Part shown: positions 16,562-45,779 of the stretch, in pieces
Position numbering within the stretch: position 1 is the first letter of the stretch
Layout of the letters: every line of letters starts with the position of its first letter
Assembly: GCA_963840885.1 (NCBI GenBank)
Contig: CAWJAN010000003.1
Span: forward strand, 1-50,340
DNA: 50,340 nucleotides
Reading direction: 5' to 3'
Source: an uncultured bacterium
GTDB lineage: Bacteria; Patescibacteriota; Minisyncoccia; Phycocordibacterales; GWA1-40-21
Position numbers and translations under genes: made by a program
Notes under the pieces: generated by a model
Seen by the model: the letters and a program-made list of their open reading frames with translations, nothing else
Databases searched by the model: none
What the model was told of the DNA's origin: nothing

Positions 16562-16711
16562 TTTGTCATCCTGGCGCAGTCCAGGATCTCGGGGAACAGC
16601 AATGGACATTTTTAACCCTAAGGCTTGCAAGTCAAATGTACTTTAGGACTATCTGGTTAAAATAAAATACTGTTTGATTGACGAGATTCCGGACTTCGCC
16701 GGAATGACAAA
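16562..16711. mobile_element. 150-bp MITE-like element with 29-bp hairpin-bearing terminal inverted repeats (GTCAT...AATCTC family)
   Basis: Left end TTTGTCATCCTGGCGCAGTCCAGGATCTC. The reverse complement of the right end is TTTGTCATTCCGGCGAAGTCCGGAATCTC (24/29 identical). The mismatches at stem positions are compensatory. There is no ORF inside. Confidence 0.75.
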
Positions 16712-28523: not shown

Positions 28524-28630
28524 GTCATTGCGAATCAGTCCGCAGACTGGTGCGGCAATCTTATTAGGTTACATTTAATCTGGTTTTCACGAGATTGCCG
28601 CGTCGCTCGGATGCCGCTCCTCGCAATGAC
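28524..28630. mobile_element. 107-bp MITE-like element of the GTCATT...AATCT hairpin-TIR family
   Basis: GTCATTGCGA-N18-GCGGCAATCT at 28524-28561. Its inverted copy AGATTGCCGC-N19-TCGCAATGAC ends at 28630. No ORF is needed to explain it. Confidence 0.7.
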
Positions 28631-39825: not shown

Positions 39826-40260
39826 ATGCTTTTAGGACGATCTGAAGGAAAAATAAGCACCAAATTTCAGGCGGCGTTCCCAAAACGATTTAGGGAAGAT
39901 ACCGGTGATATTTTAATCGTAACGAAAGGACTGGAAAGCTGTCTTATTATCGTGTCTGAGGAAAACTGGAAAACGCTCCTGGAGGGAACTGAAGGAAGAC
40001 CTTTTACAAATAAAGCAACCCGGGAGTTACAGCGTTTTCTTTTGGGAAATGCTGAACGAGTTGAGCTCGATTCAAAAGGACGGTTTGTTATTCCTGAATA
40101 TTTACGGAAGCACGCGGGCATAACAGATGAAGTGATTTTTGCAGGACTTGAGAGGTTTGTGGAAGTGTGGGATAAGGATCAATGGGATAAGCATCAGAAA
40201 GTACTTTCCGACAATATCGCCTCGATCGCGGAAAGGTTAGGTGAGATTGAAGGGAAATGA
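39826..40260 (+). CDS. mraZ: transcriptional regulator MraZ
   Basis: Two SpoVT/AbrB-like halves: ISTKFQAAFPKRFRE and LDSKGRFVIPEYLRKHAGI. It is first in the dcw order. Confidence 0.9.
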   Translation: MLLGRSEGKISTKFQAAFPKRFREDTGDILIVTKGLESCLIIVSEENWKTLLEGTEGRPFTNKATRELQRFLLGNAERVELDSKGRFVIPEYLRKHAGITDEVIFAGLERFVEVWDKDQWDKHQKVLSDNIASIAERLGEIEGK

Positions 40261-41151
40261 CCGAGTTCCATACAAGTGTACTTTTACAGGAAGCAATTGC
40301 AAGTCTGAATATTTCAGAAGGGAAGCGATATATTGATGCCACGCTTGGAGGAGGAGGGCACACGAGGGCGATCCTTGAGAAGGGTGGTCAAGTGTTGGGG
40401 ATTGACCAAGATGAGGAAGCGATTGAACATGTTCGGGTAGAATTCAAAATTCAAAATTCAAAATTCAAAGTTGGTAAAGAATTAATTTTGATGTATGGAA
40501 ACTTTAAAGATATAAGAGAGATCGCAGAGAAAAATGGATTTGGAAAAGTGGATGGGATTCTGTTTGACATTGGTATTTCCAGTCATCATGTCGATACGCC
40601 GGAGAGAGGATTTAGTTTTCAGACAGATGCACCGCTGGACATGAGGATGGATAGAAGTCTAGGTGTTACTGCAGCAGACTTGATAAATGGGTTGTGGAGA
40701 GAAGAATTAATCTCGTTATTTATGAAGCTGGGGGAAGAGTATCGTGCGAAAAAAAATAACGGAAGCAATAATACGCGCGAGAGAAGTTAAGCAAATTGAA
40801 ACGACAAAGGAATTAGCTACGATCATTGAAAAAGCTGTTGGGGGACACGGGGTAGGAATACATCCTGCGACGAAAGTGTTTCAGGCATTAAGGATTGCTG
40901 TGAACGATGAATTGAACAGCTTAGAAGAGGGATTAAGCGGTGCAATTGATCTTTTACAGTCAAAGGGAAGGATCGTAGTTATATCATTTCACTCTCTGGA
41001 AGATAGGATTGTGAAGAATGCATTCTTAGAATTTGAAAATAAAGGGTTAGGAATAATTCTTACCAAGAAGCCTATGGTACCAAGCGGTGACGAACAGAAG
41101 CGAAACAAAAGAAGCAGAAGTGCGAAGATGAGAATTTTTGAGAGAGGGTAA
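40257..41151 (+). CDS. rsmH: 16S rRNA (cytosine1402-N4)-methyltransferase RsmH; one frameshift at A8 run 40749-40756
   Basis: HTSVLLQEAI, DATLGGGGHT, FDIGISSHHVD, ERGFSF, then after the A run KITEAIIRAR...ATKVFQALRIAVNDEL...ISFHSLEDRIVK. Confidence 0.9.
40441..40468 (+). repeat. AATTCAA heptamer tract (4 exact units) inside rsmH
   Basis: aattcaa x4, translated EFKIQNSKFK, in the variable linker between the SAM-binding GID motif and the YGNF strand. Confidence 0.9.
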
Positions 41152-41320: not shown

Positions 41321-41608
41321 ATGAATAGAACAAAGATTTTTTTTGCATTGTTATTTGGTATCGTGGCTTTGTCGGCTGTTATTCAGGTATCGGCCTCAAA
41401 TTTTCTGTCGACTGATGGAATAGATTTGGCTCAAGTTCAAAACAGAATCGAAGCGTTAAAAAAAGAAAATATTCTTTTGAAACAAAAGATTTATGCCAGT
41501 GCTTCCTTGACAGAAATCGCGTCTGAAGCTGCGACTCTTGGATTTATTCCAAGTAATGACACCGTGTTTATCGATACCTCCTCGCAGCCCATCGCTATTA
41601 AACCATGA
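41321..41608 (+). CDS. ftsL: FtsL-like cell division protein
   Basis: 95 aa, single N-terminal TM helix, coiled-coil segment NRIEALKKENILLKQKI. It lies between rsmH and ftsI, and its stop overlaps the ftsI start. Confidence 0.7.
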   Translation: MNRTKIFFALLFGIVALSAVIQVSASNFLSTDGIDLAQVQNRIEALKKENILLKQKIYASASLTEIASEAATLGFIPSNDTVFIDTSSQPIAIKP

Positions 41609-43293
41609 CATGGCGTTACCACCTTATTCTGCTTTTCTTCGGTCTGGCATTCATGGCTATCACAGCAAAGCTCTTCTGGTGGCAGGTCGTAAAAGCTGAA
41701 GAGCTTTCAGATCTAGGTCAGGCACAGTACTCAAAAAATCTCCAAATAGAACCCATTCGGGGTGACATAAAAGCATCAGACGATTTTCCTCTCGCGACAA
41801 ATAAGCTATCATATCTTGTTTTCGCGAATCCGAAAGAAATTGGCGATAAAGAAGATACTGCAAATAAATTGGCACCCATTCTGGGCATGGACAGCGCGAC
41901 TATAAGCGGGAAGTTGACTCAAGATAAATTTTGGGTTCCGATAAAACCGAGTATCGATGAAGATACCAGAAAGACAATTGATGCGCTCCGTATACCTGGT
42001 GTTGGTTTTCAGGAGGAATATGGCAGGCTTTATACTGAAGCGTCAACAGCTGCACAACTTCTTGGATTTGTTGGTAAGGATACATTCGGAAATGATAAAG
42101 GGTATTTTGGCTTAGAAGGGTATTACGATAGGCAATTACGTGGCAGAGCAGGACAGGCAGTTATCATTAACGATGCATTTGGGCGTCCTGTTTTATCGAA
42201 ATTTGATGGTAGTTCCGGAGAGTTAGACGGCCGGTCATTTCTGACGCTCCATATTGATCGTGCTATCCAGTTCCTCGTTGAATCGAAATTAAAGGCAGGA
42301 ATTAATAAATACGGTGCTGAAAGCGGTATGGCTGCGGTCATGGACCCGGCAACCGGGGGTATACTGGCTATGTCGGCATTTCCATCATTTGATCCGAGAA
42401 GCTATGGAAATTACGATGTTTCACTGTATAAAAATCCCTTTATCACGGATACGTACGAACCAGGATCTACGTTTAAGCCTCTTGTTATGGCGGCAGGAAT
42501 GGAGTCTCATCTCATTACACCTACTTCGACCTGTCCTGTTTGCGGGGGTCCGGTTTCAAGTCGGAGGATACGATATCCATACTTGGAATGATCAGTATTT
42601 TGCTAACACCGATATGACGCACATCATGATTGACTCCAGACAATACCGGTATGGTGTATATTGCCCAAAGATTAGGCCTGGATCGTATGTTGTCGTATCT
42701 GGGTAAATATGGGATAGGAGATTCGACGGGGATAGATTTAGAAGGTGAGTTGGCACCGGGATTAAAACGCAACCGGATTGGTATCCGATTGATCTGGCGA
42801 CCGCGGGATTCGGGTCAGGGAATTTCTGTCACCCCCATAGAGCTTCTGGACGCATTTGCTACTATCGCGAATAAGGGTCAGCGTATGGAACCTCATGTCG
42901 TGTCGGAGATTACCACTCCTGATGGTCAGCAGATAACTATCCCGCCGAAAGTACTGGACCAGCCAATTGCTGAAGGAACTGCGAAAGTCATGACTGAAAT
43001 CTTAGTTCACGCAGTCGATGAGGGAGAGGCGAAGTTTGCCAGACTGGCAAAGGATATCGAATAGCCGGAAAGACCGGTACAGCGTCAATTCCACTGAACG
43101 GACATTATGATCCACGAAAACGATTGCTTCATTTATCGGATTCGCTCCAGCCGATAATCCAAAGTTTATTATGTTGGTTATCTTAAACAAGCCCACTGCT
43201 TCAATTTATGGCGCCGAAACCGCTGCGCCCATATTCTTCGACATCGCGAAAAACTTGCTGGTCTATTATGGAATTCCACCGAGTGGAGATTAA
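41605..43293 (+). CDS. ftsI: class B penicillin-binding protein (FtsI/PBP2-type transpeptidase); at least five frameshifts
   Basis: N-terminal TM helix and dimerisation domain, then STFKP (SxxK). SDN is readable after a shift near 42640, GFGQGISVTP after a compensated pair at about 42770/42815, and AGKTGTA after a shift near 43055. The C-terminus YYGIPPSGD ends at 43291-43293. Confidence 0.85.
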
Positions 43294-43297
43294 TGTC

Positions 43298-43702
43298 TGT
43301 CATTCCGGCTTGTCCGGAATCTCATCGACTTACACGAGGATTGATGGATTGAGTTGGTGGTAAAGATCCTTGAAGGTTGGATTCATCAGTTGATATGAGT
43401 TCTAACTTTATCTTTTCGTGACATATTTTTGATTTGTTTCTCTCTGATGATTGCTTGTGATGATCCTTCTATTGCCTCGTAATATATTAAGTTGTGTAGG
43501 TTATATTTCTGAGTAAATCCCTTTATAATCTCCAAGCTTGTGTTCTTGGAGTTCTTCGAAGTAGCATTATTCGTGACACCAGTGTATAAACGGGGTTGTT
43601 GCTCTTGTTACCCATAATGTAGACAAACATGTACTTGCTAGTCATACCGATTCAATTTACAGTCTACCAGATTGAAGAGATTCCGGACAAGCCGGAATGA
43701 CA
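43298..43702. mobile_element. 405-bp element with perfect 26-bp terminal inverted repeats enclosing a degenerate GIY-YIG nuclease gene
   Basis: TGTCATTCCGGCTTGTCCGGAATCTC at 43298-43323 is the exact reverse complement of 43677-43702. Each arm is itself a hairpin. Confidence 0.8.
43387..43645 (-). pseudogene. GIY-YIG (COG2827/URI-type) nuclease gene, spread over three frames
   Basis: The minus strand reads MTSKYMFVYIMGNKSNN, then YTGVTNN, LLRRT, EHK, and KGFTQKYNLHNLIYYEAIEGSSQAIIREKQIKNMSRKDK in different frames. Confidence 0.7.
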
Positions 43703-43707
43703 TATCA

Positions 43708-44037
43708 TCAACGTATATTCGTTCCTGGGGGAGTTTTTTTAAGAGGTTTAAGCGGCAGTGGTACTTTTCCGTCTGCGGCGAGGATCATGCCTTCGGAGAA
43801 TTCGCCCATCATCTTTCTGGGTTCTAAGTTGATTATGAAGACAAATGTTTTTCCTATAAGTTGCTCGGGGGTATAAAATTGTGAGATTCCGGAGAGGATG
43901 TTTCGCTGTCCTTCCGGACCGAAGTCGACTGTCAGACGAAGTAATTTGTTCGAACCCTCTTTGTGTTCACAGTTAAGAATTGTACCTACCCTGAGATCAA
44001 GTTTATCAAAATCTTCAAATGTAATAAGTGGTTTCAT
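43708..44037 (-). CDS. csaA: tRNA-binding domain protein (CsaA/Trbp111/EMAP-like)
   Basis: FDKLDLRVGTILNCE, LLRLTVDFG, ILSGISQFYTPEQLIGKTFVFIINLEPRKMMGEFSEGMILAA. Confidence 0.85.
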   Translation of the reverse strand: MKPLITFEDFDKLDLRVGTILNCEHKEGSNKLLRLTVDFGPEGQRNILSGISQFYTPEQLIGKTFVFIINLEPRKMMGEFSEGMILAADGKVPLPLKPLKKTPPGTNIR

Positions 44038-44548: not shown

Positions 44549-45779
44549 ATGTGGCAGAAGACGAAGAATATCTATCATTTATTCGTAGCTGTCCTCGCAA
44601 ATGTCGTGTATCGTTTTCCCGGCCGTAAACTTACTGTTATCGGCGTTACAGGGACCGATGGAAAAACCACTACTGTCAATCTCATTTATCATATACTCAA
44701 ATCTGCAGGAAAATCCGTATCCATGATTTCCACAGTTGGAGCAAGTATTCATGGAGAGATTTATATCCTCTGTGGATTTTCACGCTCACAATCACCCTGA
44801 TTCATTCTTCATTGCAGAAAGTTTTTATCGAAAGCAGTAAAGGGGAGGAGAAAGCAAAGAGAACTTCATCTTGTTCTCGAAGTCTCCTCTCACGGGGCTT
44901 GATCAATATAAGCCATGGGGTATTCCATTTAAAGTCGGGGGTTATAACGAATATTACTAACGAGCATTTGGCATTATCATAAGACATATGATAATTATCT
45001 TCTCATGCGAAAGCAAAACTTCTCAAGAAAGCAAAGATCTGGGCACTCTTCTCAATAAGGATGATGGAGCTTTCGAAAAGCTGCAGCGAACACTTACACA
45101 TCAGAAACTGGTTACGTATGGCATTCGCTCGGCTGTTGATGTTTCTCCGAAATCGTTTCCGTTTACATCCCGTCTGCCCGGCGAATTTAATACATACAAT
45201 ATGCTTGCCGCAATCGCAGTTTGTACATCTCTTGGTATTTCCAATGAAAAAATAAAAGACGGGTTAGCTTCGTTTACGCTACCCTTAGGCAGGATGAACA
45301 TGATAAAAAACGGGATGGGAATGGATATATTTGTCGACTATGCACACACCCCAAATGCTCTCACTCAAGCATTAACGACGCTCAATTCGATGAGGAAGAA
45401 AAACTCAAAAATAATTTCGATCATCGGAGCGGAAGGGTATAGAGATATCAAGAAACGTCCAAAGTTGGGAGAAATTGCCATGTCCCTTTCTGATAGAGTT
45501 ATTATTACATCGGTCGATCCGCGGGGACTGATGGATGAGATAAATAAGGCTATTTTAACTGGTGCTAAAAAGGCAGGAGGAGAATTGGGAAAAAACGTAT
45601 TTATTGAACCTGATAGACAAAAGGCAATCGATATGGCAATACACACGTTAGGTAAAAAAGGCGATATTATTGGGATCTTCGGAAAAGGCCACGAGAGGTC
45701 AATGAATATGGATGGCAAGCACGAGCTCCCATGGAGTGACTATGAAGCAGTGGAAACAGCGTTAAGAGCGAGGGCATAG
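44549..45779 (+). CDS. murE: UDP-N-acetylmuramoyl-tripeptide synthetase MurE; dense frameshift cluster at 44770-45045
   Basis: VIGVTGTDGKTTT. VLEVSSHG, LDQYKPWGIPFKVG, VITNITNEHL and AKAKLLKKAK are each readable in a different frame. ORF 44988..45779 follows (DYAHTPNAL, IIGAEGYRD). Confidence 0.8.

Follow-up and report, generated by a model that had tools for sequence, protein, structure and literature searches.

The 50,340-nt stretch analyzed here in full (hereafter the window; positions 1 to 50,340 of contig CAWJAN010000003.1, assembly GCA_963840885.1, from an uncultured patescibacterium) contains, between the convergent genes ftsI and csaA, a 405-bp unit that consists of a frameshifted reading of a small GIY-YIG nuclease bracketed by two inverted, hairpin-forming arms. 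The naming of csaA is backed by the Pfam domain tRNA_bind (PF01588, tRNA-binding domain), and that of ftsI, the last gene of an mraZ-rsmH-ftsL-ftsI cluster, by the PBP_dimer and Transpeptidase domains. The ftsI stop codon is located at 43291-43293 and the csaA stop codon at 43708-43710; the spacer between the two genes is 414 nt long, and the arm-to-arm unit accounts for 405 nt of it. The features of this spacer, in plus-strand order, are the following.

43294-43297, no strand: 4-nt spacer from the ftsI stop to the left arm, as read from the sequence.
43298-43323, plus strand: left arm, Ssn-related hairpin motif, exact inverted partner of 43677-43702 (fold z -3.8).
43330-43645, minus strand: ssn reading, a putative single-domain GIY-YIG protein of the Ssn family, full length, with five small indels.
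43646-43676, minus strand: 31-nt, A+T-rich leader that runs from the upstream arm to the ATG and can be aligned with the leaders of the homologous loci L235 and L236 (alignment A2).
43677-43702, minus strand: right arm, the same 26-mer, with the head directed away from the gene.
43703-43707, no strand: 5-nt spacer from the right arm to the csaA stop, as read from the sequence.

The window contains just two exact copies of the arm sequence, TGTCATTCCGGCTTGTCCGGAATCTC, one on the plus strand (43298-43323) and one on the minus strand (43677-43702), against 0 expected from 100 shuffles, and a repeat finder stretches the pair to 29 nt at 97% identity. Folded as single-stranded DNA (ssDNA), each arm forms a hairpin with 7 bp in the stem (ATTCCGG/CCGGAAT) and 5 nt in the loop, at -6.4 kcal/mol and with a z of about -4. 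The left arm comprises a T-GTC head that is directed away from the gene, the stem with the loop CTTGT, and a C-TC end, so that in both arms the palindrome is preceded by a GTC head and followed by a C, and both heads point outward. The two inverted arms, each of them a hairpin, are also directly identical over their stems (repeat family D1 in the window). The repeat finder and the ssDNA fold thus agree with a preliminary description of this DNA, in which the arms were said to be exact reverse complements and hairpins, and the sequence bears out the distances given there between the unit and the two stop codons (4 nt for ftsI, 5 nt for csaA). There is no direct repeat indicative of a target-site duplication at the flanks of the unit (the left one ending in TAATGTC and the right one starting with TATCATCA), nor at the loci L235-L237. 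The cassette leader contains no match to the sigma-70 promoter consensus, a tRNA scan of the window detects none, and the whole window has no match in Rfam at the gathering thresholds.

The ssn reading proceeds on the minus strand through the segments 43645-43592, 43589-43566, 43564-43550, 43548-43531, 43529-43404 and 43389-43330, in frames -3, -2, -3, -1, -2 and -1, respectively; relative to intact homologues, the indels are -1, +2, +1, +1 and +1. The frame-corrected 85-aa protein matches PF01541 (GIY-YIG) with 53.4 bits (cutoff 22.6) over residues 6-77, the sole significant domain, in accord with the earlier assignment of a GIY-YIG gene spread over three frames of the minus strand, for which a profile search after frame correction had been proposed as the check. 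An NCBIfam search started with the corrected protein yields only a sub-threshold match, and a sequence search of the PDB yields none. Aligned with the 97-aa homologue P0001, the reading corresponds to residues 1-93; it has no additional domain and is 64-76% identical to intact homologues without any large deletion. Among the enzyme classes considered for the cassette-encoded protein, GIY-YIG is the only one encountered, to the exclusion of DDE, HUH/Y1, serine or tyrosine recombinase and Cas1. With 240 family proteins as queries, the search for a second ssn in the 50-kb window returns chance-level matches only.

The preliminary description further called this gene a remnant, a term that is uncertain here. 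The five indels fall within about 300 nt, a density about 10 times that of the neighboring 6 kb (P about 1e-4 at the local rate, a Poisson estimate), and most of them lie outside homopolymers. In the same region, however, the essential gene ftsI (41605-43293) switches frame about 6 times over 1.7 kb, with several of the switches at G5, GGG or AAAA runs, and rsmH (40257-41151) switches frame once, while both genes are otherwise well conserved; either an indel-prone assembly or a decaying genome region is behind the frameshifts in these essential genes. Because the frameshifted neighbors point to an error-prone assembly, the pseudogene call has to be softened: some or all of the ssn indels may be assembly errors. 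The corresponding alternative, that the organism has an intact ssn in a functional Ssn cassette, the five frameshifts being sequencing or assembly errors, is compatible with the full length of the reading and its similarity to intact homologues. Polishing errors are common in repeated elements, which is taken to favor this alternative as well. It is nevertheless at odds with the tenfold indel density and the position of most indels, and we regard it as a minority possibility; genuine decay of this copy is the somewhat better supported interpretation. Downstream, at 44549-45779, a Mur-ligase-like reading apparently comes in two pieces. Elsewhere in the window (about 8.5-29 kb), many genes are long uninterrupted open reading frames (ORFs).

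The Ssn family comprises single-domain GIY-YIG proteins (CDD cd10448, GIY-YIG_unchar_3) (Chenal et al., Nat Commun 2025, PMC11893778). The founding member, the 94-aa SsnA of Neisseria meningitidis, binds the hairpin repeat NTS (consensus CGTCATTCCCGCGMAVGCGGGAATCYRG), which is an extension of the dRS3 repeat; it recognizes ssDNA only and the motif strand only, nicks it a few nucleotides 5' of the motif, and cuts neither the complementary strand nor double-stranded DNA (dsDNA) (PMC11893778). The strand-specific activity restricted to ssDNA has been shown for four homologues, the enzymes of Neisseria, N. elongata, N. wadsworthii and Wolbachia (PMC11893778). Within the motif, the GTC that precedes the palindrome is most important for cleavage, and the C immediately after it for binding; catalysis by SsnA requires Y6, Y17 and E64 (PMC11893778). 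Ssn-related motifs (SRMs) have been found near 71% of the homologues, and on both sides in 42%, and the hairpin-ssn-hairpin arrangement is linked with hundreds of solo or paired hairpins (PMC11893778). The NTS-ssnA-NTS architecture has been called identical to that of insertion sequences (ISs), with a parallel to RAYT/REP, and domestication has been hypothesized (PMC11893778).

For the comparison with Neisseria, the 94-aa N. gonorrhoeae SsnA orthologue (L271:1198-1482), which has Y6, Y17 and E64 at the published positions, was used; the locus L271 (NZ_CP119140.1:1881078-1883756) comes from a PLSDB 'plasmid' record that is actually a 2.17-Mb N. gonorrhoeae chromosome. The corrected protein is 38% identical to this orthologue over 88 aa (pairwise E 9e-19; the criterion for Ssn homologues in the original paper is E < 1e-10, PMC11893778), and hhalign aligns the family profile A1 with it with the probability of 99.7% (E 4e-26). 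The catalytic Tyr/Tyr/Glu triad is matched, with the VYI, LYTG and REKQ motifs of the corrected reading aligned with Y6, Y17 and E64; in the family alignment, Y7 is nearly invariant, and Y17 and E64 are invariant, the respective codons being in different frames as assembled here. A second protein-database search, aimed at the Neisseria SsnA, retrieves Rhodocyclales-like proteins only. Judged from these sequence comparisons and from the determinants of cleavage and binding retained in the arms, the unit very probably belongs to the Ssn/SRM system and represents a variant-motif form of it, namely, a hairpin-ssn-hairpin cassette in which a GIY-YIG nuclease of about 95 aa is bracketed by its own recognition motifs. 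This class of cassettes is already described, since 2025, as the Ssn/NTS(SRM) system (PMC11893778). The suggestion that the element class had not been described has accordingly to be abandoned, given that the hairpin-ssn-hairpin arrangement, the scattered hairpins and the likeness to ISs and RAYT/REP have all been published (PMC11893778). Literature searches that combined GIY-YIG with terminal inverted repeats, transposases, miniature inverted-repeat transposable elements (MITEs) or REP returned nothing relevant; it was the repeat name dRS3 that led to the Ssn paper.

The properties of this family also bear on the possibility that the gene encodes a free-standing homing endonuclease of the GIY-YIG type and reached the ftsI-csaA spacer by homing; the GIY-YIG domain and the discrete insertion could be invoked in its favor. 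The single-domain protein of about 97 aa is devoid of a DNA-binding extension, the family enzyme does not cut dsDNA (PMC11893778), and the sites at which the cassette is found are unrelated and share no conserved target gene, so that homing appears extremely improbable.

Database searches show the nearest proteins to be intact GIY-YIG proteins of about 95-100 aa that, where labeled, are mostly assigned to Patescibacteria. Many homologous proteins end with ...DKPE or start with MSFRLVRN, that is, with the arms read as protein. The 80 family loci that were retrieved (L121-L200; 77 with enough flanking sequence for hairpin counts) come from Patescibacteria, Nitrospirota, Gamma-, Alpha- and Deltaproteobacteria, Ignavibacteria, Chloroflexota, Clostridia and others, and their proteins are 52-69% identical to the reference protein. 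A scan by a structural rule (GTCA followed by a stem of at least 6 bp and a C) identifies hairpins on both sides of the gene in the heads-out orientation at 28 of the 77 loci and in the heads-in orientation at a single one, and the hairpin density is 2.7 per kb beside ssn compared to 0.14 per kb further away (about 19-fold). Thus, intact GIY-YIG ORFs do sit inside hairpin pairs elsewhere, which was one of the checks proposed in the preliminary description.

The closest instances allow the ends of the element to be traced. In L235, the arm sequence of the window cassette is present on both sides of ssn, upstream of mraZ; in L236, between unrelated genes, the downstream arm is as in the window and the upstream arm is a one-base-pair variant; in L237, the downstream arm is again as in the window, and the upstream side is not seen, the contig beginning 2 nt before the gene. 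In the alignment of four elements (A2), homology starts at TGTCAT and stops at ATGACA, the right arm (columns 389-413) is invariant, and the interiors are about 70% identical. One Nitrospiraceae metagenome-assembled genome (MAG) carries two ssn copies (L134 and L146) that are 83% identical only over the gene and the downstream arm. Several short contigs (L235, L237, L240) end no more than about 40 nt from the end of ssn or csaA, which fits the breaking of assemblies at repeated arms.

Convergent ftsI and csaA are retained in six genomes (L201-L206) and in one metagenome contig (L243), in which csaA is 66-72% and ftsI 51-71% identical to the genes of the window; a metagenome scan for closer syntenic relatives identifies none above 72% csaA identity, and an empty version of this locus comparable at the nucleotide level did not turn up. 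In these seven relatives, the stop-to-stop spacer is 0, 0, 0, 2, 5 and 40 nt (L201-L206) and 0 nt (L243), in agreement with the proposal that a discrete unit was inserted where the two convergent genes are otherwise separated by a minimal spacer. Comparison of these sequences indicates that the 405-bp unit is extra DNA at a variable junction; L241 contains an unrelated 252-aa ORF (470-1243) at the csaA-ftsI junction, which seems to be a recurrent landing place. The closest intact homologue, L237 (JGI metagenome 3300078412, L237:1-687), encodes an ssn that is 76% identical to the reading in the window, beside a csaA with 83% identity to that of the window; the insertion event may be old or the site may have been reused. 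The presence of a real, discrete 405-base cassette between ftsI and csaA is confirmed.

Several observations weigh against the assignment to the Ssn/SRM system or against the insertion history outlined above. The published SRM search pattern, HGTCWYN(0-2)YYVSBRHN(0-5)WNVSBRGN(0-2)RNCYNB, which was built by hand from 29 genomes (PMC11893778), has 0 matches in the window compared to 9 in the gonococcal locus searched with the same code. The arms miss the pattern because their stem is one to two pairs shorter, and at the homologue loci the pattern detects motifs on both sides in 7 of the 77 cases against 28 of the 77 for the structural rule. The heads-out arrangement is not universal: the array in which the gonococcal ssnA resides comprises 16 NTS hairpins within 2.7 kb, some in each orientation, and the motifs nearest to the gene are heads-in. 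The relatives with empty sites are distant, at 52-72% amino-acid identity, so that insertion in the lineage of the window, as opposed to ancestral loss, is a parsimony argument. In L237, the intact ssn and csaA are convergent, opposite to the co-directional order in the window; this orientation could mean that the cassette was inverted by way of its 26-bp inverted arms or that the same gene end received an insertion independently. Finally, the five ssn indels are possibly, in part, assembly errors.

Two further hairpin pairs of this type, with no ORF between the arms, are found in the window.

16565-16708, no strand: ORF-less heads-out pair with the arms GTCATCCTGG..CCAGGATC and GTCATTCCGG..CCGGAATC and a 96-nt interior.
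28524-28630, no strand: ORF-less heads-out pair with the long-loop arms GTCATTGCG...GCAATC (37-38 nt) and a 32-nt interior.

Both are real heads-out hairpin pairs, as the preliminary description had it when listing two ORF-less relatives of the cassette. The arms of the first pair have different stems (ATCCTGG/CCAGGAT and ATTCCGG/CCGGAAT) within the same GTCAT...ATCTC frame, a change that keeps the hairpin structure. The similarity of its interior to the 5' leader of the cassette, which would be expected of an internal-deletion derivative, is marginal and is matched by 15 of 500 shuffles. The right arm of the second pair folds no better than shuffled sequences, and no cognate ssn was identified for this pair, the arm family of which is the source of the spurious 'VIARSEATKQS'-like peptides in many genome annotations. 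Altogether, the window contains three heads-out pairs, and the structural scan finds 5 hairpins with a stem of 7 bp or more, compared to 0.27 expected.

All six hairpins of these pairs are intergenic and located at gene ends, a distribution that would also be expected if the arms served the convergent genes as REP-like terminators or mRNA stabilizers and flanked a nuclease gene only incidentally, a role that is by itself compatible with membership in the Ssn system. There is no terminator-like site and no T-run at the arms, the hairpins are enriched about 19-fold beside ssn in a fixed orientation, and direct binding and cleavage by Ssn have been published (PMC11893778); this interpretation is therefore very unlikely.

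The arm motif itself is widespread. A survey of one-genome-per-species data for GTCATTCCGG-N3-8-CCGGAATCTC, with 20 fixed bases, yields at least 120 loci (L001-L120) compared to about 6 expected by a uniform-composition estimate. The hosts among the matches listed include Alpha- and Gammaproteobacteria, Bacteroidota, Fibrobacter, Treponema, Nitrospirota, Dehalococcoidia, Caldisericota, KSB1 and Patescibacteria. Many of the listed copies have an inverted partner 10-40 nt further on, with a different stem in the same GAGAT...ATGAC frame, and ssn is present within the retrieved flank at 1 of the 120 motif loci listed. This combination of few ssn genes with many hairpins is the same pattern as that published for Neisseria. 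The loops look lineage-typical, being CGAAAG-like in Proteobacteria, GCTTGAC-like in Bacteroidota and Spirochaetes, and ACTTGAT-like in others.

A comparison of filled and empty sites is afforded by the Sphingobium 'Tom' replicons, which are 86-95% identical around fnrL. Seven records carry arm-ssn-arm (e.g., L273:1927-2307). At the same spot, AP027342 and AP027328 contain a single palindrome, GTCACCCCGGG-TCAAG-CCCGGGGTGAC, that is, a double-headed hairpin that joins the outer halves of the left and right arms, and AP027337 contains an unrelated palindromic repeat. Because the arms share direct stem identity, recombination or replication slippage between them would delete the cassette and leave one such double-headed hairpin; alternatively, the double-headed palindrome could be the insertion target. 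Double-headed hairpins are rare, with 3 in 1.58 Mb of retrieved loci versus about 390 single-headed ones. At the empty sites (L274:~990-1020, L276:913-940), the 10-14 nt beside the right head of the palindrome differ in every strain. The Sphingobium sites, together with the 0-40 nt spacers in the relatives of the window, provide the presence/absence polymorphism that had been proposed as a check on insertion, and the Sphingobium sites are a lead, not a demonstration, as to how the cassettes are lost or gained through their arms. Of the three outcomes that the preliminary description would have taken as a refutation, none was observed.

If either strand of the cassette became single-stranded, Ssn would be expected to nick just outside the cassette, at the 5' end of that strand. 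Extrapolation from the published cleavage position places the predicted nicks in or beside 43294-43297 on the plus strand and in or beside 43703-43707 on the minus strand. As assembled, with five indels, the copy in the window would make no enzyme and could only be acted on in trans. Cassettes would be gained and lost as units through their arms. With inverted arms and cutting in one orientation, either strand would be cut at a single end; GIY-YIG nucleases hydrolyze DNA, and they are not known to catalyze strand transfer. One-end cutting by a hydrolytic enzyme does not support peel-and-paste transposition of the IS200 type. The discrete insertion and the inverted repeats of the preliminary description are supported. 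Its label 'transposon-like' is still a hypothesis; the missing target-site duplication, the hydrolytic enzyme and the reported cutting of ssDNA in one orientation tell against it.

More specifically, the unit might be, or might have been, an autonomous IS of a new mechanistic class, with the GIY-YIG protein as the transposase, the arms as the ends and the ORF-less pairs as MITEs, an idea that the authors of the Ssn paper also raise (PMC11893778). It would accommodate the sharp ends of the insertion in alignment A2 and in the spacers of the relatives, the same arms around homologues in unrelated contexts (L235-L237), the two copies in one MAG with homology confined to the gene and an arm (L134/L146), the 55-68% identity of the family across many phyla, the filled/empty polymorphism in Sphingobium, and the excess of the 20-base arm motif in about a dozen phyla, often as short heads-out pairs. 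It has to contend, however, with the lack of a target-site duplication at the window unit and the aligned elements, with hydrolytic chemistry for which strand transfer is not known, and with cutting of the motif strand only, which at inverted arms would sever one end per strand, unlike IS200/IS605 excision. Furthermore, ssn is within reach at 1 of the 120 listed motif loci, viral contigs contain 2 weak family loci in 2.9 million and offer no obvious vector, and no transposition event has been observed. We consider such an autonomous element rather unlikely. A less demanding scenario, in which the cassettes are mobile through a GIY-YIG ssDNA nickase that marks both outer edges, leaving it to host replication or recombination to move or remove the unit, can be put forward only tentatively. 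Under this scenario, and with the same reservation, the double-headed palindrome might be an empty-site signature or a target, the copy in the window a decayed, non-autonomous one, and the ORF-less pairs MITE-like.

Among the known systems, Ssn/NTS(SRM) resembles the cassette most fully, in the single-domain SsnA homologue of about 95 aa, the Tyr/Tyr/Glu triad, the flanking GTC...C hairpins and the additional intergenic ORF-less hairpins; the differences are that the window stem is 7 bp with a 5-nt loop, that the host is a patescibacterium, as the labels of the nearest MAGs also suggest, that the copy is frameshifted, and that it forms a strict heads-out pair in contrast to the dense mixed arrays around the gonococcal ssnA. 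RAYT/REP-REPIN likewise combines a small nuclease gene bracketed by inverted hairpins with ORF-less singlets or doublets and recognition of ssDNA hairpins, but RAYT is a Y1 HUH enzyme with a covalent intermediate and a GTAG head, whereas the cassette has a hydrolytic GIY-YIG enzyme and a GTC head. IS200/IS605 elements share the small size, subterminal hairpins, action on ssDNA and absence of a target-site duplication; their ends, however, are asymmetric and are both cut on one strand by TnpA (Y1), whereas those of the cassette are perfect inverted repeats. In the Neisseria dRS3/NIMEs, the dRS3 core ATTCCC-N8-GGGAAT is similar to ATTCCGG-N5-CCGGAAT, and arm pairs with short spacers resemble NIMEs, but the stem sequence and the host differ. 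The dRS3 repeat serves as an attachment site for a filamentous phage, and no such use is seen in the window. The homing endonucleases of the I-TevI type have the catalytic domain PF01541 in common with the cassette protein, which, unlike these enzymes, has neither a DNA-binding domain nor an intron or target-gene context, and the characterized Ssn enzymes act on ssDNA only.

The Ssn/SRM system was described only in 2025. What the present analysis adds is a patescibacterial copy with hairpins that escape the published SRM pattern, a clean insertion of a cassette between two nearby stop codons, and a nucleotide-level comparison of filled and empty sites in Sphingobium that suggests gain and loss through the arms. 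Surveys based on the published SRM pattern undercount the Ssn system outside Proteobacteria. The locus leaves the general picture of the element unchanged and supplies concrete substrates for the question of the mobility of Ssn cassettes.

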